Of a stretch of 64,000 nt of DNA, positions 37,480 through 47,341 are shown one piece after another; the first letter of the stretch is position 1; each line of letters begins with the position of its first letter. A program made the translations under genes and the position numbers. The notes under the pieces are model-generated. The model worked only from the letters and a program-made list of their open reading frames with translations. It was not told the DNA's origin and did not search any database. The DNA comes from Promethearchaeota archaeon (GTDB taxonomy: Archaea > Asgardarchaeota > Lokiarchaeia > Sigyniarchaeales > SOKP01). The stretch is from assembly GCA_019058445.1 (NCBI GenBank), contig JAHPZA010000010.1, forward strand, positions 576,001 through 640,000, in the 5' to 3' direction.

Positions 37480-37737
37480 TTAGCCTATTTCTACATCCAT
37501 TTTCTTACGCTCTTCAAGGAGATCGTCAACTACAGATGGATCGGCTAAGGTTGTGACATTTCCAATATCAGTACCAGATGCGATAGCTTTTAAAATTCGA
37601 CGCATAATTTTACCACTTCTGGTTTTTGGAAGGGCATCTGCAAATTGAACGACATCTGGTTGAAAGACTGGTCCGATCTCTTGTCGAAAATGCATTTTAA
37701 TGTCGTGTTTCAAATCTACAAATTTTTCAATTCTCAT
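37480..37737 (-). pseudogene. acs: Duplicated 3'-terminal fragment of acetyl-CoA synthetase
   Basis: Last ~65 aa (EIGPVFQPD...[14 protein letters not shown]...MDVEIG*) identical to the C-terminus of the 45051 gene; no upstream acs sequence. Confidence 0.85.
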
Positions 37738-37831
37738 AAATATTATTATAACTCTGTTTATTTTGTTTTAATCCATAATTTTTTATAACCCTAACTCAAT
37801 ATATTTAAATTAAAGATTATTAAGCAAAACT

Positions 37832-44484: not shown

Positions 44485-45021
44485 ATGCCAATAGTTAGTT
44501 CAATACCAATCGCGATTTTTTATTATATTTTACTGTTTTTAGGCACTATAGTCTGCATAATTGTGTTATTTATGGGAAATGGAGATATAACAAATATTTT
44601 TGGTTATTTTTTTATCTCAGGAACTGGATTAGTTTGTCATCTTATATTAGTAGGGGATCTTTTTGATAACCAGGATATAGATTATCCCTATAGAACTTAC
44701 ATTTGCATAATTTTAATTGGAGTTTTCTTTTATTTGGTCGCAATTTTTTATGGTTTGTTTATAATTCTACTTCTCTTTTATCAGGTTTCAAAAAGTACTT
44801 TTGCATTTTTCAATTTTATATCCTTTGCAATATTATGGATTCTTGTCATAAGTGTTTCTTTATATAGCATCTTTATATATTCAGTTAAAGAAGAAGAAAA
44901 ATTAAGAGACAGACTAATTGAGAAAAAAAGGAGAGCCAGACAAAAAAAGAAAGAACTACGAGATAAAATGGAAGAGTATCTACAATGGAAAGCTAGGGAA
45001 AAACCAGACCAACAAAGTTAA
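44485..45021 (+). CDS. Four-TM membrane protein with charged C-terminal tail
   Basis: Hydrophobic segments then a K/R/E-rich helix. Confidence 0.6.
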   Translation: MPIVSSIPIAIFYYILLFLGTIVCIIVLFMGNGDITNIFGYFFISGTGLVCHLILVGDLFDNQDIDYPYRTYICIILIGVFFYLVAIFYGLFIILLLFYQVSKSTFAFFNFISFAILWILVISVSLYSIFIYSVKEEEKLRDRLIEKKRRARQKKKELRDKMEEYLQWKAREKPDQQS

Positions 45022-45050
45022 TTAAAAAAAAAAGTAAAAATTGATTTAAT

Positions 45051-47185
45051 TTAGCCTATTTCAACATCCATCTTCTTACGCTCTTCAAGGAGATCGTCAA
45101 CTACAGATGGATCGGCTAAGGTTGTGACATTTCCAATATCAGTTCCAGATGCGATAGCTTTTAAAATTCGACGCATGATTTTACCGCTTCTGGTTTTTGG
45201 GAGAGCATCGGCAAATTGAACGACATCAGGTTGAAATACTGGTCCTATTTCTTTTCGAACATGATTTTTAATATCTCTCTTCAACTCAACTGATTTATCA
45301 ACGCCTTGCATTAAAGTAACAAAACTCCAAATGGCTTGACCCTTAATTTTGTGGGGAAAAGGAGCTACTGCAGCTTCAGCTACCTTCGGATGACTCACTA
45401 TTGCTGATTCGACTTCCATGGTTCCAATTCGGTGGCCTGAAACCTTAATCACATCATCTAATCTGCCTAAAATCCAATAATAACCATCTTCGTCTCGACG
45501 TGCTCCATCTCCAGTATAGTAACATCCCGGATACCTTTCGAGATAAGTCGATTTGAATCGTTCGGTGTCACCCCACACATCTCTTAACATACCAGGCCAT
45601 GGTTGAGCCATACAAAAATATCCTCCTTCATGGGCTTCAGTTACCTCGTCTCCTTCTAAATCAAAAATTATCGGTTTGATTCCTAAGAATGGTAAGCAAC
45701 ATGAACCTGGTTTTGTGGGTGTAGCGGTCGCTATCGGCGTCATTATAAAGCCCCCCGTTTCTGTTAGCTAATGAGTGCGAATTGCAATCATCTTTTGCCA
45801 GTATGTATCAACGATGGGGCATTTTTCCTTTCCTACAATTCTGTGATACCACGTCCATGCCTCAGGGTTTTTCCCAAACTACGCATAAGTTGCATAATTT
45901 ATTGGTTCCCCTACAGTACCTAAGACGCGGATAGAGCTGAGATCATGTTTATTCACAGGCTCATCACCATATCGCATTAACGCTCTTATTGCCGTCGGAG
46001 CTGTATAAAACTGTGTAACCTTGTGTCGCTCAACAATATCCCAAAAGCGGTCCACATTTCCCCCATATGAAGAAATTTCAATTTTTCCTAAAGAATTAGG
46101 ATTTTTAATTTGTATGACTGGGTATGTAGGCACGCTTTCAAACATAAGTGTTGTAGCGCCATTTGCTAATGGTCCATATACAATATAACTATGTCCGGTA
46201 ATCCAACCTATATTTCAGCTAAGCTAAGCGAGTTGCTTTAACTTTCTGCTGTACAATACCAGACATCGCCATCCTTATAATTAAACACCACTCTATGTGT
46301 AAATGAAGTGTAAAGGATATAACCTGCTGTGGTATGTTTCACCCCTTTAGGTTTACCAGTAGTTCCGCTTGTATATAGGATGAATAAGGTGTCTTCAGAA
46401 TCCATTTCTTCACAATCACAATCCTCATTCATACCATCAATGAAATCATGATACCAGATATCCTTGTTGGTGCTTGGAACTTCATTTCCCGTACGCTTTA
46501 CTATTATAACATGCTCTATGGTAGGTACGTCATCGATAATTTGAGCGACATCTGCCATTTTTGGATAGGTTTTTCCCGCTCTAAAGGTCTCATCGCTAGT
46601 AAACAACAATCTCGAATCAGAATCCTCAATCCTATCTTTTACTGCTTCTTTTGAAAATCCGCCAAATACAATAGAATGAATTATTCCAAGTCGAGCGCAG
46701 GCTAACATAATAATTGCCAATTCAGGCAACATAGGGAGCCAAATGGTGACCCTATCTCCTTTTTTGAGCCCAAATTTTTTCATGCCGTTGGCAACTTTAC
46801 ACACTTCTTTTTTTAGCTCGCTAAATGTGAATTTTCTCACTTCTCCGGGTTCATCAGCCTCCCAGATTAGAGCGGTATGGTCGCCTTTCCCTTTTTTGAT
46901 ATGGCGATCGATACAATTATAGCATACGTTTAATTTTCCGCCAACAAACCATTTTCCGGGAAATAAGTCCGTTTTTTCCCAAACTTTATCGTAAGGTTTG
47001 AACCAGTCTAAAGATTTAGCTTGCTCGCCCCAAAACCCCTCCATATCATCAATACTTTGCTGCCACAGTTTTTTATATTCTTCGAAAGACATCCCGGTCT
47101 TTGCATAATCAGGATTTAAATTAACCGGATTGAAAACACGTGTTTCTGTAAGAATCGATTCCATTTTTTTATCTTCTTCTGACAT
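45051..47185 (-). CDS. acs: Acetyl-CoA synthetase (AMP-forming), 5 exons / 4 putative BHB introns; exons 46246-47185, 46118-46213, 45901-46057, 45794-45870, 45051-45763; spliced product 660 aa
   Basis: [68 protein letters not shown]. Exon sum is 1983 nt (661 codons) with no internal stops after splicing. Confidence 0.9.
45764..45793 (-). other. acs intron 4, 30 nt, BHB-type, contains in-frame UAG
   Basis: mRNA: CU GGCA AA|A GAUGA...UCAUU AGCU AA|C AG; removal gives UGG CAA ACA GAA (WQTETGG). Confidence 0.85.
45871..45900 (-). other. acs intron 3, 30 nt, BHB-type, contains in-frame UAG
   Basis: mRNA: ACCA AU|A AAUUAUGCA-ACUUA-UGCGUAGUU UGGG AA|A; removal gives GEPINPEAW. Confidence 0.85.
46058..46117 (-). 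other. acs intron 2, 60 nt, relaxed BHB-type, in-frame with no stop
   Basis: mRNA: ACCC AG|U CAUA...UAUG GGGG AA|A UGUGG; removal gives CCA GAU GUG GAC CGC (YPDVDRFW). Confidence 0.75.
46214..46245 (-). other. acs intron 1, 32 nt, BHB-type
   Basis: mRNA: UGUA CAGC AG|A ...hairpin... GCUG AA|A UAUA; removal gives GCA GAU AUA GGU UGG (ADIGW). Confidence 0.85.
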
Positions 47186-47191
47186 AAATTA

Positions 47192-47231
47192 TCACCAAAT
47201 TTGATACTTGAATAGAATATTTTTTTATATA
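47192..47231 (-). promoter_or_regulatory. Putative SD (GGTGA) and TATA-like box upstream of acs
   Basis: Minus strand reads TATATAAAA about 40 nt upstream and GGTGA 6 nt before the ATG. Confidence 0.4.
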
Positions 47232-47341
47232 GAAATTTTCTTAATCACATGAATTCAATAACAGTTTTAAACATTTTATATAAATTTTATAAATAATTAT
47301 ATACTTAGAGAACGAAATTATTTTGTACTTGAGGGGTTAAA

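Follow-up and report, generated by a model that had tools for sequence, protein, structure and literature searches.

A short insert in the acetate–CoA ligase gene of a Lokiarchaeon is probably a bulge-helix-bulge intron within the coding region

Introduction

In 2002, Watanabe et al. reportedly described a pre-mRNA intron in the gene cbf5 of Crenarchaeota. The cbf5 introns are short (16–44 nt), of the bulge-helix-bulge (BHB) type and located within the coding region (PMC2738675). They are the only confirmed coding-region BHB introns in the literature searched, and the one further mRNA case is the BHB intron in the 5′ untranslated region (UTR) of HVO_1309 in Haloferax volcanii (PMC7714728). The same search retrieved nothing on BHB introns in protein genes of Asgard archaea. 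Here, we describe a 32-nt insert (intron 1; positions 46214–46245, minus strand) in acs, the gene of an AcsA-type acetate–CoA ligase, of a Lokiarchaeon (Promethearchaeota, Asgard). The window analyzed is a 64,000-nt stretch of its genome (assembly GCA_019058445.1, contig JAHPZA010000010.1, positions 576,001 to 640,000 of the forward strand), to which unprefixed coordinates refer. The insert very probably is a real intron, which would add a new gene and a new lineage to the coding-region BHB introns.

As in cbf5 (Yokobori et al., 2009; PMC2738675), a short BHB intron would lie in an open reading frame (ORF), split a codon within a conserved functional motif and be gained or lost among relatives. 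The predicted cuts are likewise located between nucleotides 2 and 3 of the bulges, and the hetero-oligomeric splicing endonuclease (EndA) with relaxed specificity of the cbf5 hosts would be common to both cases. The acs intron differs in its gene, which encodes a metabolic enzyme, and in its lineage, Lokiarchaeia instead of Crenarchaeota. It is moreover one of four introns of a uniform 30/32-nt build. Whereas the splicing of cbf5 was confirmed by cDNA, the acs intron is known here from the DNA sequence alone.

In the unconventional splicing of the eukaryotic HAC1/XBP1 mRNAs, which belongs to a regulated stress response, Ire1 cuts at two stem-loops and not at a BHB motif; RtcB is said to be implicated in HAC1 splicing. 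The acs case would be similar in that a short mRNA intron is removed by an endonuclease and a tRNA-type ligase without the spliceosome, which changes the frame of the product, but Ire1 is a different endonuclease and the process is stress-regulated there. Among tRNA introns, the non-canonical ones of the Asgard and TACK lineages (PMC5829648; bioRxiv 10.64898/2026.10.13.758758) resemble the acs intron in their hBHBh′ or relaxed BHB structure (exon helix h, central helix H, intron helix h′), in the presumed use of EndA and RtcB and in their occurrence in intron-heavy lineages. Unlike in tRNAs, the exon half of the acs motif consists of codons, so that synonymous sites are constrained. Like HVO_1309 (PMC7714728), acs would have an mRNA on which the archaeal splicing endonuclease acts; however, its intron is located in the coding region and gates the reading frame, which the UTR intron does not.

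Results and Discussion

The acs reading frame is interrupted within an aspartate codon

According to the ORFs and the spliced translation, acs extends from 45051 to 47185 (minus strand) and comprises five exons. Removal of all four inserts results in 1983 nt encoding 660 aa without any further lesion, and the pieces cover the profiles TIGR02188 and NF001208 end to end. Compared to an uninterrupted ortholog of the same genus (L013), the spliced AcsA shows 94.7% identity across 660/660 aa. In the following, the source genome is denoted G000, and L numbers denote loci or contigs of relatives or metagenomes.

The unspliced ORF (46238–47185) begins at 47185 and terminates after 315 aa in a UAA (46238–46240, minus strand) two codons past the start of intron 1. 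Downstream of this stop codon, AcsA resumes in another frame with I-G-W-I-T-G-H-S-Y. Intron 1, which is composed of an A, a 25-nt hairpin, GCUG and AA, interrupts the Asp codon of the sequence C-T-A-D-I-G-W; when G46246 is joined to A46213, the mRNA reads ACA GCA GAU AUA GGU (T-A-D-I-G) with the Asp codon G|AU, where the bar marks the junction. A first-pass annotation of this DNA had placed a 32-nt insert at 46214–46245 that splits the Asp codon of TADIGW and leads, by a frameshift and an immediate UAA, to a truncated product of 315 aa, and all of this agrees with the sequence. The same annotation spoke of a "frameshift plus stop gate"; the frameshift and the stop are present, but no evidence was found for a regulatory "gate", and any such use would be conjectural.

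Based on the sequence comparisons described below, we give a probability of roughly 85% to the reading that 46214–46245 is an archaeal BHB (tRNA-type) intron of 32 nt, located inside the coding sequence of the one AcsA-type gene that this organism has.

The insert and its flanks form a BHB motif

On the mRNA (minus strand), the region reads UUGUA-CAGC-AG|A-(25-nt hairpin)-GCUG-AA|A-UAUAG, with bars at the predicted cuts. The 5′ strand of the central helix, CAGC (46248–46251), belongs to exon 1 (codons aCA GCa) and pairs at 4/4 positions with the intron strand GCUG (46216–46219). It is bordered by the 5′ bulge AG|A (46245–46247, predicted cut between 46246 and 46245) and the 3′ bulge AA|A (46213–46215, predicted cut between 46214 and 46213). 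The exon helix is formed by UUGUA (46252–46256) of exon 1 and UAUAG (46208–46212) of exon 2 (codons gAU AUA Gg) and has a length of 5 bp, two of them G-U. The intron helix (46220–46244) carries the 5-nt loop AACUC (46230–46234) on the stem AAGUU-A-AAGC / GCUU-AGCUU, i.e., 5 bp, a bulged A and 4 bp. The perfect central helix CAGC/GCUG of the first-pass annotation was thus recovered, as was its exon helix UGUA/UAUA, which lies within the 5-bp helix. Its intron hairpin of about 9 bp does have 9 bp, but these are split into 5 and 4 by the bulged A, and A46220 is unpaired in addition.

Protein homology sets the insert boundaries to within one nucleotide, and two registers give the same mRNA. In the register G|A...A|A, the central helix CAGC/GCUG shows 4/4 Watson-Crick pairs, the bulges have 3 nt each, the exon helix has 5 bp and the intron helix contains a run of 7 bp; the alternative protein-compatible register has none of these features of H, h and h′. 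A motif of this quality (32-nt span, H 4/4, h at least 4 and h′ at least 5 bp) was found at 49 of 2,000,000 random genome positions, corresponding to 2.45e-5 per register. The significance stems from the position, the site being fixed independently by protein homology, and not from folding energy. Cuts between nucleotides 2 and 3 of each bulge excise exactly 32 nt and restore GAU (Asp) and the frame; this cut rule was confirmed by cDNA for cbf5 (PMC2738675). A search of 45000–47300 against Rfam resulted in no match at E ≤ 1. A self-splicing group I or II intron or a known RNA family was considered and rejected, as the insert has only 32 nt and no Rfam match.

In the proposed mechanism, CAGC of exon 1 would pair with GCUG of the intron in the pre-mRNA to form the 4-bp central helix, with AG|A and AA|A as 3-nt bulges on opposite strands and the motif flanked by the exon helix UUGUA/UAUAG and an intron hairpin of 9–10 bp. 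EndA would cut each bulge between its nucleotides 2 and 3, and RtcB would ligate the exons, which would restore the split Asp codon G|AU within C-T-A-D-I-G-W as well as the frame. Unspliced mRNA would yield only the 315-aa fragment.

Compensatory changes maintain the structure in relatives

The relatives examined are metagenome-assembled genomes (MAGs) named Promethearchaeota or Promethearchaeia, i.e., Lokiarchaeia. At the site of intron 1, 78 of 81 species-representative acs orthologs are contiguous. An insert of exactly 32 nt is present at the identical site in two other Promethearchaeota MAGs (L036, CAZWEM010000025.1, and L052, JAHLWP010000038.1; 3441–3472 in both). A pattern scan of metagenome contigs identified 15 further acs genes with intron 1, and the alignment of G000, L036, L052 and these contigs (A2) contains 12 distinct sequences.

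Little or no variation is seen in this alignment in the exon flanks, the two bulges and GCUG, with AG|A, AA|A and GCUG identical in all 12 copies, and the 20 stem positions are almost wholly different among three sequence types. Nevertheless the stem is retained: 9 of the 10 h′ pairs are altered on both sides, and 92.1% of the cells pair in the canonical hBHBh′ structure versus 26–42% when the 3′ partners are slid by 1–3 columns. The observed pairing or covariation score was equalled in 0 of 500 shuffles. For the exon helix, 96.7% of the cells pair across the 12 copies. The central helix pairs in 12/12, its sole variation being an A>G change in L052 that is kept as a G-U pair in the BHB register.

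In L036 and L052, the h′ stem runs contiguously into the central helix, and these two copies are canonical hBHBh′ motifs. The G000 copy is near-canonical; in the strictly canonical register, 7 of its 10 stem positions pair. L130 and L144 have the same stem type, including the internal bulged A and the unpaired A, together with compensatory changes of their own, so that this stem register is no accident of a single sequence.

The exon strand of the motif was analyzed at the third codon positions. Among the intron-bearing copies, Thr is encoded by ACA in 11 and by ACG in 1, Ala by GCA in 12/12 and Ile by AUA in 12/12. Of the 78 intron-less orthologs, 22% (Thr), 38% (Ala) and 33% (Ile) have an A there. 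Such a preference for A would be expected if the exon strand were structurally constrained.

The loop (A-N-Y-U-C; A2 columns 24–28, window 46230–46234) keeps the letters A, U and C in all 12 copies while the stem turns over. The loops of the other acs mini-introns also begin with A and often read AAUUC, AACUC or AUUUC. This invariance is no requirement of the BHB model.

The acs gene is under purifying selection

The ratio of non-synonymous to synonymous substitution rates (dN/dS) was 0.017 for G000 against L033, 0.035 against L052 and 0.05–0.08 for L052 against its near relatives. On the G000-specific branch, 113 synonymous and 7 non-synonymous codon changes were counted, and the non-synonymous fraction is no higher than on intron-less sister branches. 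No second AcsA-type gene was found in G000, where the next-best matches are distant acyl-CoA ligases with at most 173 bits. In four metagenomic alleles (L125, L127, L128 and L138), intron 1 is the only insert and the gene is otherwise full-length. A pseudogene is very unlikely because of the strong purifying selection on the exons, the lack of a second AcsA and these alleles with intron 1 only.

The insert is real DNA: contigs of three samples of one study (X1, X3 and X4) span it without differences, and its 32-mer is single-copy in the genome, even when 6 substitutions are allowed. The 12 alleles with compensatory changes, the purifying selection, the sole AcsA and the fixation of the exon sites support the earlier suggestion of a BHB intron whose precise excision would be the only route to a full-length enzyme.

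As a separate observation, codon 36 of acs in L032 (genome G007, CAZRKO010000219.1) is changed from GAA to TAA; the ortholog is 94% identical otherwise, and its contig has a coverage below 5. Another intron was considered here and rejected, since this is a plain nonsense change, which may stem from a sequencing error or reflect a real loss.

Splicing machinery and tRNA introns

RtcB is intact in G000 (PF01139, 574 bits, open frame of 492 aa, C1:114713–116020). A single EndA homolog of 202 aa was identified (PF01974 and PF02778; C9:770313–770918, L030 1219–1827), which looks like a non-catalytic, structural beta subunit in the alignment. For Asgard archaea, an (alpha-beta)2 EndA with an L1 loop that broadens the specificity was described (PMC5829648). 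Among relatives of the same genus, the higher-scoring alpha paralog is present in 9/9 and the beta-like paralog also in 8/9; the alpha protein of the relative G002 retains the residues Y, H and K.

Using ARAGORN, only 23 tRNA genes were recognized in the whole G000 genome, 19 of them with introns, and none in the window. Most tRNA genes of G000 are probably too interrupted for recognition by this program. The figures fit the heavy tRNA intron load carried by Asgard archaea (bioRxiv 10.64898/2026.10.13.758758).

Weighing of the alternatives

Several observations weigh against a BHB intron processed by EndA. In the G000 copy, A46220 is unpaired between h′ and the central helix, and the 5′ bulge hence faces a 1-nt bulge; the term "canonical" used in the first-pass annotation was slightly overstated for this copy. 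The minimum free energy of the fold of 46200–46260, proposed there as a check, is not significant (z-score −1.0, and −0.67 for 46202–46257), i.e., not better than that of shuffled sequences. RNAalifold favours a 3-bp helix CAG/CUG shifted by 3 nt over the 4-bp helix CAGC/GCUG, and covariation cannot decide the register of H because the exon strand is almost invariant. The third-position count is weakened by the shared ancestry of the carriers, which may have acquired a common intron-bearing segment by recombination and would then not be fully independent samples. On the side of the enzymes, the G000 EndA has F and D at the positions aligned with the catalytic Tyr115 and His125 of the Methanocaldococcus jannaschii enzyme. 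The catalytic alpha subunit and its neighbours were not found in the G000 assembly (4.6 Mb, ten contigs, 92.6% complete) when the Pfam model, an alpha protein of the same genus, tblastn and, from three relatives, the alpha loci of 3.2 kb were used; this absence is likely a gap of the assembly.

The main residual alternative, to which the invariant loop letters belong, is that the insert is excised from the RNA by another endonuclease and ligase, or by a factor recognizing the hairpin or the A-N-Y-U-C loop, and not by EndA. It would accommodate the missing catalytic EndA subunit, the constancy of A, U and C in the loop despite stem turnover and the one uniform build of all acs mini-introns. We nevertheless regard it as improbable: the sole protein-restoring register with a BHB is G|A...A|A, the bulge letters and the central helix are invariant, both EndA paralogs occur in relatives, and archaea are not known to possess another mRNA splicing system of this type (PMC7714728). 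A decaying pseudogene, in which the insert is disabling and never removed, would explain the frameshift with its early stop, the three more inserts and the lack of a catalytic EndA in the assembly. It has little to recommend it in view of the intact frame outside the four inserts, the dN/dS values of 0.017–0.08 and the 113 synonymous versus 7 non-synonymous changes. In 12 alleles, which come from several clades and habitats, the insert has also been kept at one site while its stem changed in a compensatory way, acs is the only gene of the AcsA type in G000, and the sole gyrB contains a similar insert.

A ribosome that skips the insert, by bypassing as in T4 gene 60 or in the byp elements of mitochondria, or that shifts frame, is still harder to reconcile with the data. 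A short insert with a hairpin and a stop near its 5′ end is superficially like such bypass elements, but a codon-wise hop cannot recreate the split Asp codon G|AU, and the sequence lacks a take-off codon with a landing codon to match: landing on GAA (46214–46216) would be followed by AUA UAG, out of frame. A single frameshift cannot both pass the UAA and remove 32 nt. Practically negligible is an origin as a small mobile DNA repeat (a palindrome resembling miniature inverted-repeat transposable elements) or as an assembly error. The insert does contain an inverted repeat; however, its single-copy state even with 6 substitutions, the agreement of the contigs from three samples, the lack of an Rfam match and the G-U pairs in the stem, whose arms compensate at the RNA level, speak against this reading.

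Similar inserts in acs and in other genes

The putative BHB intron at 46214–46245 is accompanied by three more inserts in acs (all minus strand). Insert 2 (46058–46117) has 60 nt, is in frame and contains no stop; its motif shows 3/4 pairs in H and 4 bp in h′, and it occurs only in G000, plus a 42-nt version in L036. Insert 3 (45871–45900; 30 nt with a UAG) is also present in L036, L052 and L097/L023, its stem sequence being different in each of these carriers. Insert 4 (45764–45793; 30 nt, likewise with a UAG) was found in 7 other species-representative orthologs, and two more, L037 and L039, contain a 30-nt insert aligned 2 nt beyond this site. Other acs alleles (L036, L052; L124, L139, L142 and L146) hold more mini-introns than G000, with extra sites at positions 1134, 1176 and 1583 of the G000 acs gene, up to about seven introns and up to 223 extra nucleotides in one gene. 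The inserts of acs, at eight sites, follow one build: 1 nt, a stem of 9 or 10 bp with a 5-base loop starting with A, a 4-nt helix strand and 2 nt, which are mostly AA.

Similar inserts were identified in further genes of G000. The sole gyrB (C9:606358–608376, minus strand) carries a 30-nt insert with two UAA codons inside L-E-G-V|R-K-R-P, with a 4-bp helix GGCG/CGCU and the bulges UA|A and AA|A. Two acyl-CoA synthetase paralogs (C6:876338–877992 and C6:861976–863748, minus strand) are interrupted near G-W-T-Q, one by a 29-nt insert with the central helix CCUG/CAGG and a 5-bp exon helix, the other by an insert of 27 or 30 nt. A genome-wide census, which combined a BHB template with an excision that merges two open frames, revealed no excess over two classes of frame-shifted controls, neither with a loose template (4762 frame-restoring hits vs. 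5233 and 5413) nor with a tight template for mini-introns of 29–33 nt (94 loci vs. 87 and 104). The census is without signal because hairpins at gene junctions swamp it and genes with several introns fail the open-frame filter.

Intron 1 of acs probably belongs to a wider class. A more far-reaching and tentative proposal, to which we give somewhat less than an even chance, is that protein genes of Lokiarchaeia, among them acs, gyrB and acyl-CoA synthetases, contain uniform mini-introns of 30/32 nt as a class that extends across the genome. The tRNA machinery would splice them, and recombination of intron-bearing gene segments would spread them between alleles or lead to their loss. Each would consist of 1 nt, a stem of 9–10 bp whose pentaloop starts with A, the 4-nt strand of a helix and AA.

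The distribution of intron 1 was compared with the acs tree, in which the three species-level carriers are located in three separate clades, each with intron-less sisters. The exons between the introns disagree with exon 1, since L036 is nearest to G000 there (acs nt 940–1400) but not in exon 1. Over the first 1000 nt of acs, L052 is 92–99% identical to L066 and L074, but the following, intron-rich 200 nt reach an identity of only about 80%. These patterns tentatively point to an exchange of acs segments, with or without introns, by recombination.

At the 3′ end of acs, the last ~80 residues of AcsA recur as a fragment at 37513–37746 (minus strand), about 7.5 kb downstream of the gene. In a contig of the source sample, 45272 is joined back to 45051, with 7349 nt in between. 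These observations fit the insertion of an element of ~7.3 kb at the 3′ end of acs (45051–45272, minus strand) with a target duplication.

Implications

If intron 1 is a BHB intron as proposed, an Asgard archaeon would have to remove this and three more introns to make an enzyme of its central metabolism. Gene callers split or truncate such genes, so that metabolic reconstructions from Asgard MAGs can miss acs, gyrB and others. Intron 1 would also provide a clean minisubstrate for the specificity of the Asgard EndA, and it bears on the existence of split protein genes before the spliceosome. Should the tentative genome-wide class hold true, central metabolic and replication genes would require routine splicing of their mRNAs for expression, and this in the closest relatives that eukaryotes have among the prokaryotes.

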